Origin: Podospora anserina
Taxonomy: Eukaryota
Reading direction: 5' to 3'
Length of the DNA: 64,000 nt
Assembly (NCBI GenBank): GCA_017654855.1
Contig: CM030339.1
Span: forward strand, 1 to 64,000
How positions within the stretch are numbered: the stretch's first letter is position 1; each line of letters begins with the position of its first letter. Below the pieces are notes generated by a model. The model did not search any database and was not told where the DNA came from. It saw only the letters and a program-made list of their open reading frames with translations. A program made the translations under genes and the position numbers. Shown here piece after piece: positions 9,147-62,208 of this stretch.

Positions 9147-9217
9147 GCCGAGTTAGCATAAAAAAAATGCAATTGTTTTGTAATCAATAGAAGTAAGTGC
9201 GATACTTGCACCCGGCT
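9147..9217 (+). tRNA. trnT: tRNA-Thr(TGT)
   Basis: Acceptor GCCGAGT/ACCCGGC, anticodon loop TTTGTAA. Confidence 0.88.
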
Positions 9218-9228
9218 AGGAGTTATAA

Positions 9229-9301
9229 GGATTAGTAGTCAAGTGGTACGACATAGCTCTTTTCAATGCTACCATCGCAGGTTCGATTCCTGCCTAGTCT
9301 A
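9229..9301 (+). tRNA. trnE: tRNA-Glu(TTC)
   Basis: Acceptor GGATTAG/CTAGTCT, TTC anticodon, T-loop GTTCGATTC. Confidence 0.87.
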
Positions 9302-15744: not shown

Positions 15745-17515
15745 TAACCAAAGTTGAGTTTGGTGATGGCTCTGATTGAACACTGTCCAAATACTTGACA
15801 CATGCTAATCGAACGTTTAATTAAATTTTACAGTTGCAGTAAAGTTATTCTTTCCTTTCTGTAAAACTGGTTATTAAGGAGGTTTAAATTTAGGGTTTAT
15901 TCTCCTCTATTTATAAGGTTAATCTCTCTAAAGGGGTTTTTTAATTAAAAGTGGTGTACAGGTGAGTATTATGGTTTTTGTACTACCTAAAAGTAAAGGC
16001 AAATCCTTTATAGTAATAAAGAACGGTCATGTTCGCTTTTAGATGAAGATAAAAATCTCGGGGAAAGGTAGTTGTTAAGGTAATTGCTTAACAAGCCTAG
16101 TATTCTCTTAGTCGAAGCTGAGAAAGGTTGATCGACCACATTGGGGATGAAAAATCCCAAGGCAAACGAAGTACAGCAGTGAGGAATATTGGTCAATGGC
16201 CTAACGGCTGAACTGGTAACTTGGAAGAATGGCTCCATAAAAATGGAGTTAATCGATTTATCGAATAAAATTCTGTATACATACCTATAATGACGGTATG
16301 TACATCTTGTCTTGACCAATTGCGTGCCAGCAGTCGCGGCAATACGTAAGAGACTAGTGTTATTCATCTTAAATAGGTTTAAAGGGTACTTAGACGGTAG
16401 AATTTGCCTTAACGGGAACAATTTTACTAGAGTTTTATATAAGAAGATCTTACTCTAGAGTGTAGAGTTGTAATTCATTAATACCTAGGGGACTGGTAAA
16501 GGCGAAGGCAATCTTTTATATAAAAACTGACGTTGAAGGACGAAGGCTTAGGTCACAAAAAGGATTAGATACCCAAGTAGTCTTAGCAGTCAATTATGAA
16601 TGCCATAGGTTAGATATAGTTAAATACAAACAAGGGCGTAAGCTCGTATTAAATTTTACCATCTAGTCTATAAATGAAAGTGTAAGCATTTCACCTCAAG
16701 AGTAATGTGGCAACGCAGGAACTGAAATCACTAGACCGTTTCTGACACCAGCAGTGAAGTATGTTATTTAATTCGATGACCCACGAAAAACCTTACCACA
16801 ACTTGAATATAAAAAAATGCTATCTACTACCATCACTTATTTAAAGGTAGCGGCGCGGGGCGGCGAAAGCTCCTCCTCGCTCTAAATTTAAGTGTTAGGC
16901 GCAAGCTCTAAGATATATAGCTGGCTAAATATTATTTAGCTAACTATGCTTTTAGGTTATAGATTAATGCAAGTATTATACAAGTGTTGCACGGCTGTCT
17001 TCAGTTGATGTTGTGAAACTGTGGTTCGGTCCATGGAATTAACGAAAACCCTTGCTTTATTTGTAAATTCTAAAATAAAGCAGTTCACCTGTATATGGGT
17101 TATGATAAAAGGGATCAAGACAAGTCCTCATGGCCTTGATGTTGTGGGCTATAGACGTGCCACATGTACCTAAACAAAGAGATGCAAAAATGTGAATTTT
17201 AGCTAATCTCCCAAAATAGGATAAAATTAGATATGGATTGTAGTCTGAAACTCGGCTATATGAATAAGAAATTGCTAGTAATCGTGGATCACCATGACAC
17301 GGTGAATATAACTTCGGATTGGTACTAACCACTCGTCACATGCTGAAAGGAGTATGCGCAATAAGTTTGCTGTTCTGTATTAAACAAGAATAGATGACGG
17401 TGCAAGCTAGATTTTATTTTTAATATGGGGCTCTTCGTATGTGTGACTCTGATTAGTGTAAAGTCGAAATACGGTTCGTGTAGTGGAAGTTGCACGGGAC
17501 TTATTATACTTAACA
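15745..17515 (+). rRNA. rns: Mitochondrial SSU rRNA (ends approximate)
   Basis: GAGTTTGGTGATGGCTCTG, GTGCCAGCAGTCGCGG, GGATTAGATACCC, AAGTCGAAATACGGT. Confidence 0.95.
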
Positions 17516-17937: not shown

Positions 17938-18745
17938 ATGACTAATTTAATTAGAAGTAATTTTCAAGATCATCCGTTTCATTTAGTATCTCCATCTCCA
18001 TGACCCTTATATACTAGCGTTAGTTTATTAAATTTAGCTACTAGTGCTGCTTTATCTATGCATAATTTTAATAATAGTTATTATTTATTTTTATCTCTTT
18101 AATATTAGTTATTTCATCTATGGCTTTCTGATTTAGAGATATAATATCAGAAGCTACTTTATTAGGGGATCATACATTAGCAGTACAAAAAGGATTAAAT
18201 TTAGGTGTTATACTTTTTATAGTATCTGAAGCACTATTTTTTTTAGCTATATTTTGGGCTTTCTTTCACAGTTCATTGACACCTACTGTAGAATTAGGAT
18301 CTCAATGACCACCTATAGGTATTGAACCTATAAATCCTTTTGAATTACCTTTACTTAATACAGTAATACTTTTATCTAGTGGTGCAACAGTAACTTACGC
18401 TCATCACTCTTTAATTCATGGGGAAAGAAAAGGAGCTTTATATGGGTCTATTATTACTATATTACTAGCTATAATATTTACAGTATTCCAAGGAGTTGAG
18501 TATAATGTATCATCTTTTACTATTAGTGATGGTGCTTTTGGTACATGTTTTTATTTTGGGACAGGTTTCCACGGGTTCCACGTGATAATTGGAACAATAT
18601 TTTTAGCGGTAGCTTTATGAAGAATATTTGCTTACCATTTAACTGACAACCATCATGTAGGTTTTGAAGGTGGTATTTTATATTGACATTTTGTGGATGT
18701 AGTTTGACTTTTTTATATGTTTCAATTTATTATTGAGGTTCTTAG
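17938..18745 (+). CDS. cox3: Cytochrome c oxidase subunit 3 (two T-run frameshifts)
   Basis: [46 protein letters not shown]. Confidence 0.95.
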
Positions 18746-18785
18746 TAGATTATTCATCATTTCCAAATTAACACCAATATACAAA

Positions 18786-18857
18786 AGGATCTTAGTATAA
18801 TGGTAATACATGTGACTTTTAATCATTCGGTCATCGGTTCGAATCCGGTAGATCCTA
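18786..18857 (+). tRNA. trnK: tRNA-Lys(TTT)
   Basis: Acceptor AGGATCT/AGATCCT, anticodon loop CTTTTAA. Confidence 0.92.
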
Positions 18858-18992
18858 TATATAATGTATATTCTTAATTTTTTTTTTTTGTAGTACTACG
18901 TACGTAGTACTGCGTATTGCATATAGTATACTGCTGATCCCTTTGCATGCGAAGCCTAAATAAGTATGCCTACATAGCATTAAGCTAATGCT

Positions 18993-19064: not shown

Positions 19065-19293
19065 TATTAAATTTACGGTGCAAGCTCTTTTACTATCTTT
19101 ATAGAAGGAGCACGGTGTACGTACGAAGTCGCCTGCAGCCACGTCATACCACACCGCACCACACTCACTTTATTTTGAGGAGGAGGAGGAGGAGCTTGCG
19201 CCTCGCTATATATAGCGCCGTATACATATAGACATACTTCGTCAGTACGTATGCAAGCTCTAAGCTCGATTTAGTGTTAAAAACTTAACTTAA

Positions 19294-19566: not shown

Positions 19567-19757
19567 TTCCAGGTGCAAGCTCCCTTTGGCTGTATAACTT
19601 TCTTAAATATTTTGGATCACTTCGAGCCTACACCTGGGAATAAATAACCCTATGGTTGATGATACTGGGTGGTGAGTATCACGTACAGACATACAGAGGA
19701 CGTACAGACGTATGTCTGTACTTATCCTCTTAATAATAAATATTAAAAATATTATTT

Positions 19758-20423
19758 ATGAATAATAACTATCCCTTATTTTGAATAAACGAAATTTTAA
19801 CAAATGGTTTTGTTGAATACATATTAGATATATTTTCAATAATGGCTTTTCTTACAGGAATATACGTTATTTTAACTAAAAACCCTATTGTATCCGTATT
19901 ATTTTTAATACTATTATTTGGAGGTATTTCCTCTTATTTGAATATAATAGGTCTAAATTTCATAGGTTTATCATATATAATAGTATATATAGGTGCTGTA
20001 TCTATATTATTTTTATTTATCTTGATGTTAATAAATATTAGAACAAGTGAACTTCAAAGTAATACTAGTAATAGTATTCCTTTAACAATATTTATTGGAA
20101 TTATATTTAGTAATTTTTTATTTCCAATGTTACCTTATGATATTGTCATGTTAAGTAATTTCTATAATAACTATTTTAGCGAGGATTTTTATACAATAGA
20201 TGTAAATATAAATGATAATAATTTGAATAATTTATACAATAATGTACTGTATTTTATGACTAGTGTAATATGGGATGGATCTGTAATAGACTTTAATCAT
20301 ATAACAGCTATAGGTAATATAATGTATACTATTTATAATATATGATTAATAATCGCTAGTTTTATACTTTTACTAGCAATGGTGGGATCAATTGTTATAA
20401 CAATAAAACAAAGAAAAATTTAG
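19758..20423 (+). CDS. nad6: NADH dehydrogenase subunit 6 (221 aa)
   Basis: KNPIVSVLFLI, YIIVYIGAVSILFLFILML, LLLAMVGSI. Confidence 0.95.
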
Positions 20424-20562
20424 GTGGGTGCAAGCTCGACATACTTCGTCAGTACGTCGGGAGAAGTATGTCTGTATATATGCGGCGCTATATATAGGGA
20501 GGCGCAAACTCCTCCTCACTCTATAATTAAAAAAAAAAAAATTTTTTTTTACCATAATTTAA

Positions 20563-20634
20563 AAGAAATTAGCTCAACGGTAGAGCAACCGTTTTACACA
20601 CGGAAGGCTATGAGTTCGAATCTCCTATTTCTTA
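20563..20634 (+). tRNA. trnV: tRNA-Val(TAC), copy 1
   Basis: Acceptor AAGAAAT/ATTTCTT, anticodon loop TTTACAC. Confidence 0.92.
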
Positions 20635-20898
20635 CAAGGCTGGTGCGATATGATTTTGCACCGCGCCTGGATAAAATGAGACTTAAAAAAAGATATAATA
20701 AATTAAAGTATAAAAGTAAAACACGATGCCCGTGTTATGCACGTAGGACGGCGTTGGACGTGCTTACTGCTGGTCTGCGGGCATTATATATATAATATCG
20801 ACGTGGGATATATAGACATACTTCGTCGTCTTACAGACGTACTGACTAAGTATGTCTGTATGCCTGCAGTTACATATTCATTAAAGTTTACACTTAAA

Positions 20899-20969
20899 GC
20901 CCCTATAGCTCAATGGTAGAGCATAATACTGTTAATATTATGATAGATGTTCGATTCATCTTGGGGGCT
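20899..20969 (+). tRNA. trnN: tRNA-Asn(GTT)
   Basis: Acceptor GCCCCTA/TGGGGGC, anticodon loop CTGTTAA. Confidence 0.92.
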
Positions 20970-21004
20970 ATGCCATTTAGTTAAGACTTAGTTGAAGATT
21001 CATT

Positions 21005-21035
21005 TGGTGGGATCTACCGGATTTGAATCAATGAC
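21005..21035 (-). pseudogene. Inverted 3'-half fragment of tRNA-Lys ending in an encoded ACCA
   Basis: The minus strand reads GTCATTGATTCAAATCCGGTAGATCCCACCA. trnK reads GTCATCGGTTCGAATCCGGTAGATCCTA(+CCA). Confidence 0.75.
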
Positions 21036-21483
21036 TTAATTTTTGACCTTTTCTTAACTATTGGCAGTGCTCGCTCGATATAAACAAACTATTAAAACAT
21101 GAAAAATAAAAATACTAGGCGCAAGCTCCCTTTGACGGGGTTAGCTCCGGGTGCGCAAGCTATGCAAGCTCTGGTGAAAAAATTTTTGGGAATAAGTAGT
21201 TGTTAAGGTAATTGCTTAACAAGTTTGGGGTTTCTTAAATCCTATAATAGCTTATAGGATAATAGACAGCTAGATGACGAGCTTGCGCCTGGTAATTGTT
21301 GTTACATATTGCATATAACTTTCTTAAGTACTCCAGACTAGTTTCGCCGTCATCATCCTCATCTATTTAGAGGATGATGATGATGGTGATTAACCTACCG
21401 GATGATTAGTATTACATACAGACAGACGTACAGACGTATGTCTGTACTTATTCTCTTAATAATAAATATTAAAAATATTATTT

Positions 21484-22375
21484 ATGAATAGTAACTATCC
21501 CTTATTTTGAATAAAGGAAATTTTAACAAATGGTTTTGTTGAAAATATATTATATATATTTATAATAATGGCTTTTCTTACAGGAATATATAGCATTATT
21601 GCAAATTTAATTAAATTTGTTATTAATTATATTAATATAAAGATTACTAAAATAATAACTCTAATAGAGAATTGATTAAAAAAAAAGTGACTCTTCATTT
21701 GTTTATTTTATTCTGCTTTTATATCTTTTACTTAATATACATATTTCACTAAATTTTGTTCTATATTTTAGAATAGTAATCTTAGGTTTTATCTCTATTA
21801 AAAATATGGAGATAAGTACATTAATATCTTTCATAGATTATATTTCAGAAATAATAGCTAATATAATAGATAGAAATACTTTAAAGATGGGTGGTACTGA
21901 TTCAGATTCTAACCCGTTAAGTCATGTTTATGAGTTTGCTAGTAAATCTTCTAAACCAAAAGAGGTAGAAAAAGCAATCCCAAATTTACCTGAAAATGTT
22001 CCTAAATACCCCGGTAAAATTGTAAAACCGGTACCTAATAATTTATTAGAAAAAAGAGGGCTATCATCTATGTCGGTTGAAATGCCATCTAATACTACAA
22101 ATCCTTCTGATATAGAAAGGTTAAATAATTTATTGGAGGATATAAAAAAATCTTTAGAGTTATATGATAATCAATCTCTAAAATTTAGAAAACATATATC
22201 TGAGGTCAATAATAATGACCCAAATTGTGTTTATGATCCTAGATCTAAAGAATTATTCAAGGATTATATTAAATTAGTTGATCTTTTAAAAGATCAACAA
22301 AAAGATATGGGGAATAAAATTATAAATGAATTAAAAAATATTGACCCCAATATAAAACATAAATATTTTAAATAA
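21484..22375 (+). CDS. Chimeric orphan ORF (~297 aa if one A/T-run indel near 21680-21730 is corrected): nad6-derived N-terminus plus unknown domain
   Basis: The first ~36 codons are near-identical to nad6. The 189-aa ORF 21806-22375 stays open upstream to ~21680. Confidence 0.65.
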
Positions 22376-26124: not shown

Positions 26125-28015
26125 TTAGTTTAAAATGTAACTACTTTTCTTTAATACATTAAAATCAAAATCTGAAGGTACTATACCTATTACTTTTTGT
26201 ACATCAGGAAATTTTATAGGATCAGGAAAACTGTCACCAGTTATTTCTAAGGTTTCTTCATTAAAACAACCCTTATTTTGAGTACTACGAATATTTTTCC
26301 TAATATCATCATCTAATTTCAATAGGTATTTATCATCAGAGTATAATTTAATATAAGTTAATTTTAATAAACTAATAAGACATTCCATTTTATTGGCGGG
26401 TACTGCAAAACAATCATGGATTGTATAAATATTTTTAACATCAATTGATTCTTTAAAATAAAAGTCTAATAATAATGTTAGAGAAGCTGCATCTAATGAG
26501 TGAACTAAATTAGGCATAAATGCAGTAATTTGTTTTGAATTATTAAATTGAGTTTTATTTAGTACTTTCATAGAGAACTTTTTATTAGAATGGTTGAAAG
26601 GTTTTATCCTTACCTCATCGCGTATCATATAGCTTTGTCTAACTACTAAACCAGTAGGTAATGTTCATATGATTGGAATCTCTAATAAAGTACAAACTCG
26701 AGCAACTTGATCTAAATACTTAAGTAAAGATCTAATTTATGGAATTTTTCATGTAGTACTTTTCTTAATCCTTTACCTAATACAGTAAAATCTAGACTTT
26801 TTAACCGTATACTGGGTTCATTTTTATAAATATACCATTCTAAACTATTATCTTCTAATTCAAATCCTTCTCTTATATAGTTAATAAGAGAGAAGTTACT
26901 AACATTATAAGGTATTGTCATAATACCTTTTTTAATAATTTCTCTAATAATCTTCATATTAATTAATCTATTATATGACTCACTCTCCTTAGGTGTTAAG
27001 TTTTTATTTTCTAAAAGCTCTGTTTTTAAATAATCGATAAAACAAACAACTAAAAAGGTATAAAAATCTTTTGGTACATCATCTCAAGTGGATTCACTTA
27101 AATTTAATTCTTTACTTAAGTTTGAGTCTAAACTCAATAAAGATAAGTGCTGAAATCCATTACATGTAGCATCCATTTGAATAGGTAAATATGTATCAAA
27201 TCAACTAACATCATGGTTATCCAAACAATTTAAGTATCTGTTATACTCAATACAAAAAAAGGCTAGGAATAAAAATTTATTCTTAGCTTCTTTAATTAAT
27301 TTACCATTACGATAATTTTTTATATTATTTAGATTTTTGTCAACTCATTTGATTCTATCATTTGCTGATAACTTATCTAAACCAAAGCTAGAACCTCCAT
27401 ATATTTTTAAATAACTTAAGGCAATATAATCTTTTTTATACATTCTACCAGGTTTACTAAACAGTAATAAAGATTTAGCTAAATCTGTTGATTGATAATT
27501 TAAATATTCTGGAGTACAGTATACTCTACCTCTAAAATCTGCATTTACAGGTATAAAAAATTCAGGAATATTTCTAAATATTTCAGCTAATCCTAGTATA
27601 TTTTCTTGAAGTTCTTTTTTAGCTAAAAAACTATCTAATTCCATTTTTTCTTTTTTAGTTAACTTAGATTTTTTAAGTAAAGGATGACTATATCTAGGAT
27701 CTATCAATTCATTTTTAAAATAATCACTACCATAAAGTTCAATAAAATCTAATACATCTGTATTAATTTTATATCCTATCGAACTTAAATTATTTACTAA
27801 ATCAAATATTTGATTAAAGTGTAGGATTTGAGTATTATCACGCAGATTTCACTTTTCTTTTACAATATTCTCATTTATATATAGATCATTACTTAGATAA
27901 CCTCCATTTACCCTAGTTGTATAAGGTTTAGGCTTTACTATCATAGGTATTTTTTTTGGTAAAACAAATAGTGTTCCATCTTCTGGCAATACCTTTAAAA
28001 TCTTTTTAGTAGGTT
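26125..28015 (-). pseudogene. rpo: 5'-truncated T7-like single-subunit RNA polymerase from a linear mitochondrial plasmid
   Basis: [22 protein letters not shown] (motif A), REIIKKGIMTIPYN (motif B), AFMPNLVHSLDA, TIHDCF (motif C). Confidence 0.9.
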
Positions 28016-28866
28016 TTCAGTTATTAAGGGTAATACCACGTCTTTGTACTGTGATTAGATGTGATATTGAAGGACCACGCAATAGTGGTGAATGTTTTCA
28101 AACCCCTCTATTTTTATTTTTGTCTAAATTTATACCTTTTAGACAAAATCAGTTAAGCCCTTGGTGAGGCAAAATGGTACAAAATAGTTTTTTTTAGAGC
28201 TCACACCCTTAAAAAAACTATGGTACTTAATCTGAAATCGAAGGGTCAGCGATTAAATATTATTTTTATGAAAAATTACATACGGAATATATGTAGTCCA
28301 CTTTAAGTAAATTTTAATTATCTAATGAAACTAAAAGTATACCTTTCATAAGGTAATGCGAGAGTATTTACGTATAAACACGAACCTTTTTAAGATTTGG
28401 ATTTAGTATATAAATACTTGGGTATTATACACTAAATATTTATTAGGGGTTGTTTTATCAGAAAATAACCACAAATTTTTAAAAAAATTTGTGAGAGTAT
28501 ATAAAGCTAAAATCCATGATTTTCAATTTTCTACTGCTTTAGAGAAAAATTCAAAAATTGGATCTTTAGAGATGATAGACTACTCTCTAGATATGTCCCA
28601 AATTACAAGTTGAAATCCTACTCTTCTCGCTTTAATATATAACATTAGCGAGCTCTATAGATTTAAAGGAAGGAGACTATTTTATTAAATCGCTAGTTAT
28701 TCCTCTTAATTATGCAATAGGAGGTACAGGGTAGTGTGGCCACATATGCTCCATTCTTGTTTTATTTATTCCTATATCCTGTTAATTATTATATAAATTT
28801 TAATAGTATTAAAATTTTATAGAAATCTTAGAATATTAAAAAATCTACTTTTTTATCGTAACTTAA

Positions 28867-28938
28867 AAGAAATTAGCTCAATGGTAGAGCAACCGTTTTA
28901 CACACGGAAGGCTATGAGTTCGAATCTCCTATTTCTTA
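28867..28938 (+). tRNA. trnV: tRNA-Val(TAC), copy 2
   Basis: Identical to 20563-20634 except one D-loop base. Confidence 0.92.
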
Positions 28939-29122
28939 TAAGGCAGGTGCGAGCTCTATATTTATAGCTCGCACCTAAACATGATTAAATTTAGGTGCGT
29001 TCTCTAAATATATTGATATATATTATAAAGTTTTGTGTAGTTTATAGTAGGATGCTTGGTTTGGTTTAATTATCTTTATTATTTTTTTTTTCAATTTAAA
29101 TTTATTTTTTTTTTACACACCC

Positions 29123-35079: not shown

Positions 35080-37285
35080 AAAAATAAGTATAAGTGTACT
35101 TAGCAAACCGTGAAAGGCTATATGAAAATGATTAATTTTTTAATATGAAAATGATAAAAAAAAAAAAAAATAAACGCTAATAGGTCAACTCTCAAAGGTA
35201 TTGCATTTATTTAAAACTAAATAGAAAAATCAAAAAATTTTTTTTATTTAATCCTAAGAGCATTCGCTATTAGAATATGGGAGAAGCGGAATAAGGCTTT
35301 TTTAAGCTAAAACTTTAAAGCCCATTAGGAAATTTAAGGATTATTATTAGTTAAGAAATTGGTTAGATGTGTAGAGTTATACGTTTCATTTCATTTCATT
35401 ACTAACTCTTCATTCCCCTGTGCTATTTTTTTATCCCCTTATTTTTTGCCCTATAGCTCAACGGTAGTACCTCAAAGAGGCGCAAGGTCATGCGGCTTAT
35501 CTACGCTAAGTTTAACCAACCCTTTTAAAATTTGTTGGAAGTAAACTAGTCATGTATGCCGAATATAGAATATGTTTTCTAGAAGAGGAAAGCCACATAG
35601 AAAATTCTCAAATAAACCTCGGGGAGTAAAAGTAATTGATGATAAAAGAGGGTGATCCCGTAAAAAACGGTAAACAACTAAAAAGCATTATAAAATTTTT
35701 AGGTCTAGAGCTAGAAATAATAAAAACCTGAGTTGAATGAAAACTAAGATAGAGAACCCGTAAGGAAGCCTCATTAGAATAGGGCGATCCTCATTCACTG
35801 CTAGTATTTCTACAAATAGAGGTGGGATAAAATAAGACGAAAAGCAGGTATACTAACACTATATGATGAATTAAAGAAAAATTATAAATATGATGTTAAA
35901 CAGAAGTAAGTCATGTTTTGGTGGTAATAAACAAGCCCAATATATAAAAATATAGAAAAAGAGTTTGTAAGCATTACGATCAAAGAGTAACTTTATGCAA
36001 AAAATAAGTTTACAATCGCAATATTTTGTTAACCCTAGTATAGCAAAAGCTATTAATTTTTAAAAAGTCCCACACATGATGTAAATGTGTCATATGTTAA
36101 TGCATGGGGTTTTAATTATTAATTATTACAAGAAAGTAAGATAAGAACTCCAGAAATATTAAGCGAATTTTCTAGTGCGGAAGTCGAGGTAAAATATAGG
36201 TTATATAAAGGCTAGTGATGCACAGGAAGTAAAGATGAAAATACTTAAGAATGAAATGACTACACAGGAAGCCCGTGCAAGACTTAGGACTATTTTTGGA
36301 CCATGAACATAAAATTTATTTTTTGTAAATAAGTAATAATTATTTATTTTTGTATAAGTTATATTATAACTAGTTTTTAGTCAAAATAGGTGCAAGCTCG
36401 CTAATTTATTTTATATCGATAAATTAAAGGTTTTTTGTCATGTACTCTAATTTCTATAAAAATAAAACTAAATAAGTAATGGTAATATATATAAAATTCA
36501 TTATTTATTTAATCCTTTTAAAAGGTTTAATAGAAAGTGGAGAAATCATTTTTTTTTTATACGTTTAAAAGAAAAGGGAGAAGCCTTAGTTTTTGTAGCT
36601 AACTAGTTTGATTATTTTATAATAATTAAAGATTTTAAGTTAAAGCCCATCTTATATTTAATTTTTTATATTAATTATATAATAAAAACATTTAATAAAA
36701 TTAATGTTTTATTCTAATTATTAAATTATATAAAAATTTAAATTAAAAAAAAAAAGACTTAATATTTAAAATTATAATCAATAATTATAATTTTAAATAA
36801 TTAAAAATATTGTATGTTTACAAGTCACATAATTAATAGAGTGTATATGGTATATATACTATAAGGGGCATAAGAGGACTCACAAAATATCAAGGTATTT
36901 TTACATATTATTAAATTATTGTGATCTAAAGAACAACAAATGCTAATTAAATATTTAATGAGAAATTAATTTATAATAAAAACAATAGATAGAGTAAACT
37001 ATCTTTAGAAATTCTATTGAATAACTATAGAAAAGTGAGGCAGATTGAGGTGTAGCAGTGTTATGCGTAAATTGAAGAGTAAAAGGATTACCTGTGTCCT
37101 TGCAAAATAAATACAGACATCTCCATCAAACAAGTTAACTGTGTGATTAGTAAGTAAACTGGTAGTAGCTAATTGAAATCTAAAAAATAGAAAACCTAAG
37201 ATAGAAGTGAAGTGTTTACATTATAAAATACATTAACGCTGATCTGTAGGCTAGAGCGGATCGAAATCGGAGAGCCTACCATAAA

Positions 37286-37356
37286 AGATTATGAAGTAAA
37301 TGGTTTACACTTTGATTGCAAATCTTAAGTAATAGGTTCGATTCCTACATAATTTT
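37286..37356 (+). tRNA. trnC: tRNA-Cys(GCA)
   Basis: Acceptor AGATTAT/ATAATTT, anticodon loop TTGCAAA, T-loop GTTCGATTC. Confidence 0.88.
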
Positions 37357-37734: not shown

Positions 37735-60720
<22,986 letters not shown>

Positions 60721-61747: not shown

Positions 61748-62208
61748 TAGTCTCTTTTATTTATGTTAAACCCTATAAGTTATATTAATAACTGACAGCG
61801 CGGTGCTATATATAGCGCCGCGCCGCCTTCTATTATATTGTATTGTATTGTATTATATTATATAATAAATTTTACAGTGCTATTATACGCCGTACGACGA
61901 AGTCGTACTATTTTATTAACAGAGGTTATATTCTAAGGTTAATGATAATCATAGCTAGCATACTTCATTGTAAAGCACAAGCTCGGTTATTATATTTTAG
62001 TGGCCGATGATAACCATAGTTATGTGCGAGGTAGGGGCACATAGCATAGTATGCTATGTATATAGCATTATGTAGTATAAGCTTGCTTTTATTTATGTCG
62101 CATGATGATCATACAGGCATACAGACATAATTCGTCAGTACGTCATGCAAACATATGTACTGACGAAGTATGTCGAGGAGGAGGTCCTCCTCCTCCTCTA
62201 AATAAAAA

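Follow-up and report, generated by a model that had tools for sequence, protein, structure and literature searches.

[quoted passage not shown] Because homology between the two loci stops at the mature 3' end of the tRNA, the best reading of the piece is a fossil cDNA of mature tRNA-Lys that would have been joined into mtDNA. We put the probability of this reading at roughly 55%, judging from sequence comparison. The CCA tail of a tRNA is normally added to the RNA only; here it is present in the DNA of the copy and absent from the source gene. The analysis covered a window of 64,000 nucleotides, in which the fragment and its source are placed as follows.

21008 to 21040, minus strand: copy of the 3' part of trnK, with the anticodon stem end/variable region, the T-arm, the 3' acceptor strand and the discriminator A (at 21008)
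21005 to 21007, minus strand: CCA, immediately past the fragment's discriminator, where TAT stands in the gene
18786 to 18857, plus strand: trnK(UUU), the source gene, called by ARAGORN, without an encoded CCA

A CCA-tailed piece of trnK

On the minus strand, 21035 to 21008 departs from the T-arm, acceptor and discriminator of trnK at 4 of 28 positions. A repeat search likewise pairs 18825-18855 with 21010-21040 as an inverted match of 31 nt (26/31, 84% complementary), so that the count of 24 in 28 and the coordinates given by a sequence-only reading of the window are correct. Its claim that CCA stands in the fragment where the gene has TAT is also borne out by the sequence of both loci: the gene ends with the acceptor strand AGATCCT and the discriminator A, and the DNA then reads TATATAATG. 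The fragment has no 5' acceptor strand and its T-stem is weakened. Even with E allowed up to 10 it is missed by the Rfam tRNA model, and with the same limit Rfam finds only trnV and trnN over 20400-21700. We found no description of the fragment in the literature searched, which comprised main texts other than the 1990 genome paper.

To judge descent from trnK, the 3'-terminal 31 nt of every tRNA called by ARAGORN (24 in all) were compared with the window, and the best ungapped match outside tRNA genes was scored. Lysine reaches 25/31 and the other 23 tRNAs 18-22, which makes it the sole outlier among the 24 called 3' ends. The window was also shuffled 100 times with its dinucleotides preserved: the highest score of any of the 24 tRNAs was then 20 to 24 (24 once), and lysine alone scored 18-21. 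A match no better than that to shuffled sequence had been named in the sequence-only reading as fatal to its claim, but none of the 100 shuffles equals the real one. The fragment is thus a true derivative of trnK, since its match beats all the shuffles and the other 23 tRNAs. When all tRNAs of the window were compared with the window by BLAST, no other tRNA piece appeared at E<0.003; a D-arm-like match of 19 nt lies at 35449-35467 (E=0.003).

Some tRNA genes of the window deserve a comment of their own. The ARAGORN call at 9229-9301 has an anticodon of four bases (tttc), in a place occupied by an ordinary trnE(ttc) in relatives; this reflects either an anticodon loop of 8 nt or a one-base error in this version of the sequence. 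Two further genes, trnT (9151-9211) and trnC (37288-37356), are evident by similarity to relatives and uncalled by ARAGORN; the T-loop of trnT is unusual, in relatives also.

The ends of the homology are sharp. When the two loci are aligned locally, only 26 nt are included; towards the 5' end, similarity ceases at about tRNA position 40. Its 3' limit is the mature 3' end, and it does not run on into the genomic flank of the gene: in a test anchored a priori the flanks score 2, and 55% of 4000 random 30-mers do equally well; in a local-alignment test the score is 1, and shuffles give 2.6+-1.5. Once the gene's TATAT and the fragment's CCA are set aside as a replaced block, 9 of the next 11 flank positions match. 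This match has a null of 3% over 49 offsets at length 11 and of 28% at length 14, and its length was chosen post hoc, so that we treat it as a weak caveat.

The differences between fragment and gene may also carry some history. In an alignment of trnK from close relatives the T-stem has T50-A64, and position 1 is mostly G, with C72 or T72. The gene of the window shows C50-G64 and A1-T72, and the fragment combines T50 with G64, a T.G wobble intermediate of the compensatory change, and C at position 72, as in most relatives. These two differences fit a copy of an earlier trnK allele; alternatively, independent changes within the fragment would account for them in an equal number of steps. The derived A of the GATCC acceptor is common to the fragment and the resident gene.

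Encoded CCA in other runs and in relatives

The CCA is intact in three sets of contigs independent of the window. In run X8 (organism B, possibly DNA) an 877-nt contig covers 20605-21482 with 0 substitutions, and its indels, at 20785 and 21176, both lie outside the fragment. In run X19 (organism C) a 606-nt contig covers 20899-21501 with 5 substitutions, at 20997, 21140, 21185, 21257 and 21273, none of them within 21005-21040. The contig of run X16 over 20981-21425 has 0 substitutions. Run X1 (organism A) has no contig over 20941-21176 and is therefore neutral. Because the contigs of organisms B and C carry it unchanged, the CCA is not a sequencing error, and it is common to these two near-identical organisms.

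The same runs touch on two other points. Near trnK, at 18708, 18878 and 18888-18889, all four runs (organisms A, B and C) differ from the window by one inserted T, a 2-nt deletion and two substitutions; since they share these differences, errors in the window version are suggested rather than polymorphism. The X16 contig, from a run guessed to be RNA, begins at 20981 after adapter letters, 11 nt past the 3' end of trnN, and 20981 may be a discrete RNA end.

How unusual is an encoded CCA at this place? On the minus strand of the window CCA makes up 1.0% of trinucleotides (1.2% after A), and none of the 24 called tRNA genes is followed by it. For relatives we fetched 80 related fungal mitochondrial loci via nad6, which together with the window make 81 sequences and 879 tRNA genes with at least 6 of 7 acceptor pairs. 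CCA follows the discriminator in 2 of the 879. Both are trnK, in L015 and L017, one sequence of a distant relative seen twice, whose nad6 is 62% identical to that of the window (67-69% for the closest loci). That relatives encode CCA in trnK, which the sequence-only reading had named as a refuting finding, is thus true of one distant sequence, and CCA is absent after 59 of the 61 trnK genes in the 80 loci. In L015 (1733-1878, and also in L017) the encoded CCA directly abuts trnG; it is the only CCA-encoding tRNA gene among the 879.

All 80 loci are distant and are arranged differently at the place of the fragment, and the sequencing runs come from near-identical organisms, so that neither source offers an empty site. 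BLAST of 20636-21425 and of the fragment against them returned trnN and a piece of rns only; the fragment itself gave two 18-nt matches at E=0.095, neither at a tRNA end, and hence no counterpart. We also scanned for recurrence, comparing the last 20 nt of every tRNA with its own sequence in the 81 sequences (at least 16/20, genes excluded; P. anserina by the window, all but ~36 kb of its genome). CCA comes next in only 1 of the 32 matches, the fragment of the window, so that the search for further tRNA 3' ends with CCA, which the sequence-only reading had suggested, yielded none besides this one. Relatives do contain further tRNA pieces, most of them from the 5' part or else free of CCA; the clearest one from a 3' part belongs to trnW in L049, where ATG comes next. 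A pattern scan of viral contigs for the 3' end of trnK gave 0 matches.

A scarred neighbourhood and the competing explanations

The fragment does not sit in quiet DNA. Its surroundings contain the following features.

20898 to 20970, plus strand: trnN, 34 nt from the fragment; it stands after nad6-trnV here; the five closest loci have it between trnY and the gap that precedes trnK
21178 to 21223, plus strand: copy of an internal piece of rns, 46 nt, matching 16051-16095 at 89%; the piece is conserved in relatives
15748 to 17511: rns
21396 to 21590, plus strand: second copy of the stretch upstream of nad6 and of its 5' end, 195 nt, matching 19663-19864 at 90%; it opens a chimeric ORF
20536 to 20648, plus strand: first copy of trnV with flanks, a direct repeat of 28838-28952 at 92%
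28838 to 28952, plus strand: second copy of trnV with flanks, the gene at 28867-28938
26125 to 28193, minus strand: remnants of a plasmid-type (phage-like) DNA-dependent RNA polymerase in two frames (PF00940, 3.9e-17 and 2e-32)

The closest loci (L001, L004, L006, L007 and L008) share the gene order trnY-trnN-(gap)-trnK-trnG-trnD-trnS-trnW-nad6-trnV-trnI. Upstream of trnK the window still has cox3 (18078-18800), and the two trnV copies bracket a rearranged block. The trnN beside the fragment has no CCA, and the 34 nt between it and the CCA do not resemble the trnN 3' flanks of relatives. Low-depth joints occur in run X1 at 20454>21196 and at 20455>20836, the latter also in X8 and probably running through inverted GC-rich repeats. 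The region is recombination-scarred, and most of its pieces bear no sign of an RNA intermediate. The window fits the start of the P. anserina mitochondrial map: in PMC1864894 the map agrees with it for orf c/atp6 near 22.6-23.0 kb, trnM-nd2 at ~11.3 kb and trnC-co1 at ~38.4 kb. Two other features of the area can be recorded here. A family of GC-rich palindromic repeats, at 20435-20530, 20808-20866, 19186-19257 and 62114-62177, flanks tRNA genes and gene ends, and a chimeric ORF of 83 aa (21484-21735) duplicates the nad6 N-terminus in its first ~36 residues.

Such a setting invites an explanation at the level of DNA. Illegitimate recombination or replication template-switching may have pasted an inverted trnK piece into a break-prone region after nad6-trnV, the same process having moved trnN and copied the rns, nad6 and trnV pieces; on this view the CCA would have arisen as a flank by chance, or through tandem slippage by 3 bases at the CC-A that ends the copy. 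We hold this route to be the main rival, less likely than not. It accords with the short duplicates within 600 nt, the second trnV 8.3 kb off and the polymerase remnants at 26.1-28.2 kb, and also with plasmid integration in P. anserina, which, as PMC1864894 reports, makes new short direct and inverted mtDNA duplications with junctions that cluster here. In fact, only the CCA argues for RNA, because this mosaic of DNA-level duplicates offers the fragment a credible route without reverse transcriptase. Even the CCA has a possible source in slippage: it follows 2 of the 28 genes that end in CC plus A (1 of 19 distinct sequences) and none of the other 851, and the trnK of L015/L017 has the same CC-A ending as the fragment, which hints that such an ending may gain a second CCA through a 3-base slip. 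Yet tandem triplets past tRNA ends are not enriched overall (17/879). The DNA-level route also needs two coincidences, a copy whose limit falls no more than one base from the mature 3' end, and a CCA next to it, the latter with a chance of ~1%, or up to ~5% in a CC-A context. Finally, a DNA copy could have carried genomic flank with it, and the a-priori test found no significant homology to the 3' flank of the gene, leaving the 9/11 flank match as a faint point in favor.

Two other explanations weigh far less. In the first, a plasmid would have picked up trnK, either with CCA or lacking it, and then integrated and decayed, leaving a scrap on the strand of the RNA polymerase remnants. These remnants are indeed on the minus strand, and capture of mitochondrial tRNA genes by plasmids is described in PMC9925561. 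However, 5 kb separate them from the fragment, with atp6 on the other strand in between; the three adjacent ORFs tested (20424-20795, 21484-21735 and 21806-22375) contain no plasmid-like domain; and the fragment shares the derived acceptor A with the resident gene, all of which makes an arrival by plasmid improbable. We give still less credit to a chance resemblance or a functional tRNA-like signal. In its favor, contigs of run X16, guessed to be RNA although no run is recorded as such, extend over 20981-21425, from one strand or the other; against this, the real match stands above every shuffle, the fragment with its missing 5' acceptor strand and weakened T-stem goes unrecognised by Rfam, no counterpart is conserved in the 80 loci, and the fragment is antisense to all identified surrounding genes except the minus-strand polymerase remnants.

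A proposed retro-copy of tRNA-Lys and its known counterparts

Reverse transcriptase domains are present in the compartment, in frames that are interrupted in this version of the sequence. The two RT genes claimed for the window by the sequence-only reading are found, with RT/maturase domains at 39164-40138 and 43642-44259.

38321 to 40138, plus strand: coding region of a group II intron reverse transcriptase and maturase (Intron_maturas2 1.9e-48 and RVT_1 1.2e-05 in 39164-40138)
43250 to 44259, plus strand: second reverse transcriptase coding region, N-terminal part of RVT_1 (6.9e-18 in 43642-44259)

The first region precedes the earliest exon piece of cox1 that was detected (residues 34-63, in ORF 40415-41041), and PMC8065454 states that the protein of the first cox1 intron has RT activity. 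Both frames are split into pieces of 139-324 aa (code 4), which may be due to sequence errors or to genuine decay. A precedent for the chemistry comes from retroplasmids. According to 10.1101/792986, the retroplasmid RT initiates at the 3' CCA, accepts DNA primers of unrelated sequence and switches to mitochondrial tRNAs, and both this source and PMC9925561 state that its products enter mtDNA.

To explain the fragment we propose that an RT active in the mitochondrion started at the 3' CCA of a tRNA-Lys that had already been processed and tailed. Among the RTs seen here, only those of the resident group II introns are candidates, and the RT of a lost retroplasmid is another possible author. The likely primer would be the free 3' end left in the DNA by a break shortly downstream of trnN, near plus-strand position 21004. 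On the plus strand the complement of CCA directly abuts unrelated DNA, as would be expected of priming from a free DNA 3' end. Synthesis would have run for ~35-40 nt and halted near the 3' side of the anticodon stem, possibly at a modified base of the anticodon loop, and the far end of the cDNA would then have been joined to the other side of the break. This would account for the antisense orientation of the copy to the genes, and the copy would now be functionless. No target-site duplication or other RT signature was seen at the fragment.

How firmly can this be held? Of the earlier claim that the piece is a retro-copy of a mature tRNA, the trnK origin, the boundary at the mature 3' end and the CCA absent from the gene all stand, and the authorship of an RT is what we infer from them. 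Against the proposal, the case is single and sits among DNA-level duplicates (the rns piece, the nad6 5' copy and trnV) that lack any RNA hallmark. A retro-copy is thus, by a modest balance of probability and short of demonstration, the better of two live explanations. A more specific version, in which a group II intron RT copied a host tRNA from its CCA end and the product served as break filler in the main mitochondrial chromosome of Podospora and became fixed, is tentative, with a little less than an even chance of being right. In a bolder version the entire local mosaic, with the moved trnN, the rns piece and the nad6 5' copy, might have been stitched together by RT template switching.

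Ageing in Podospora is the classic case of mtDNA destabilised by a mobile intron that encodes an RT. To our knowledge, direct sequence traces of an RT acting on other RNAs are scarce. If the proposal is true, a fixed, CCA-tailed tRNA scrap would mean that such events reach the germline, and a tRNA 3' end followed by CCA would be a simple signature with which rearrangement junctions could be screened, both in senescent cultures and in other fungal mitogenomes. If intron RTs made the filler, the fragment would be the first germline fossil of intron RTs acting on host tRNAs, and these enzymes would join in the repair and rearrangement of mtDNA in a wild-type fungal genome. If the fragment is a DNA-level accident, it adds one further scrap to a known recombination hotspot.

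The same hallmark logic, a CCA that is absent from the gene and points to an RNA intermediate, applies in other settings. Nuclear processed tRNA pseudogenes carry an encoded CCA, and yeast captures cDNA at double-strand breaks, where a short cDNA likewise serves as filler at the repaired break. The compartment and the enzymes are different, however, and flanking duplications or poly-A are neither expected nor seen here.

Within P. anserina, the duplications made by integration of pAL2-1-type linear plasmids share the species, genome region, size class and orientation with the fragment (PMC1864894), and plasmid polymerase remnants are near. Those, however, are DNA copies, which would bring the own flank of the gene and not a CCA. 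The closest counterparts are the Mauriceville/Varkud retroplasmid RT inserts of Neurospora, which, according to 10.1101/792986 and PMC9925561, also belong to Sordariales mitochondria and also place a mitochondrial tRNA in DNA with its post-transcriptional CCA; their RT, as in our proposal, initiates at the tRNA 3' end without a matching primer, and it begins at the penultimate C. The link to this type of RT, which the sequence-only reading had drawn, keeps its precedent in the literature and serves only as an analogy. No retroplasmid sequence was seen beside the fragment: the three flanking ORFs tested contain no RT domain, and no long frame adjoins it. In contrast to the Neurospora inserts, the fragment is 5'-truncated, fixed in the main genome and common to two coded organisms, and the only RTs seen here are those of group II introns. 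Even so, the fragment is probably a new example of the process known from the Neurospora retroplasmids.
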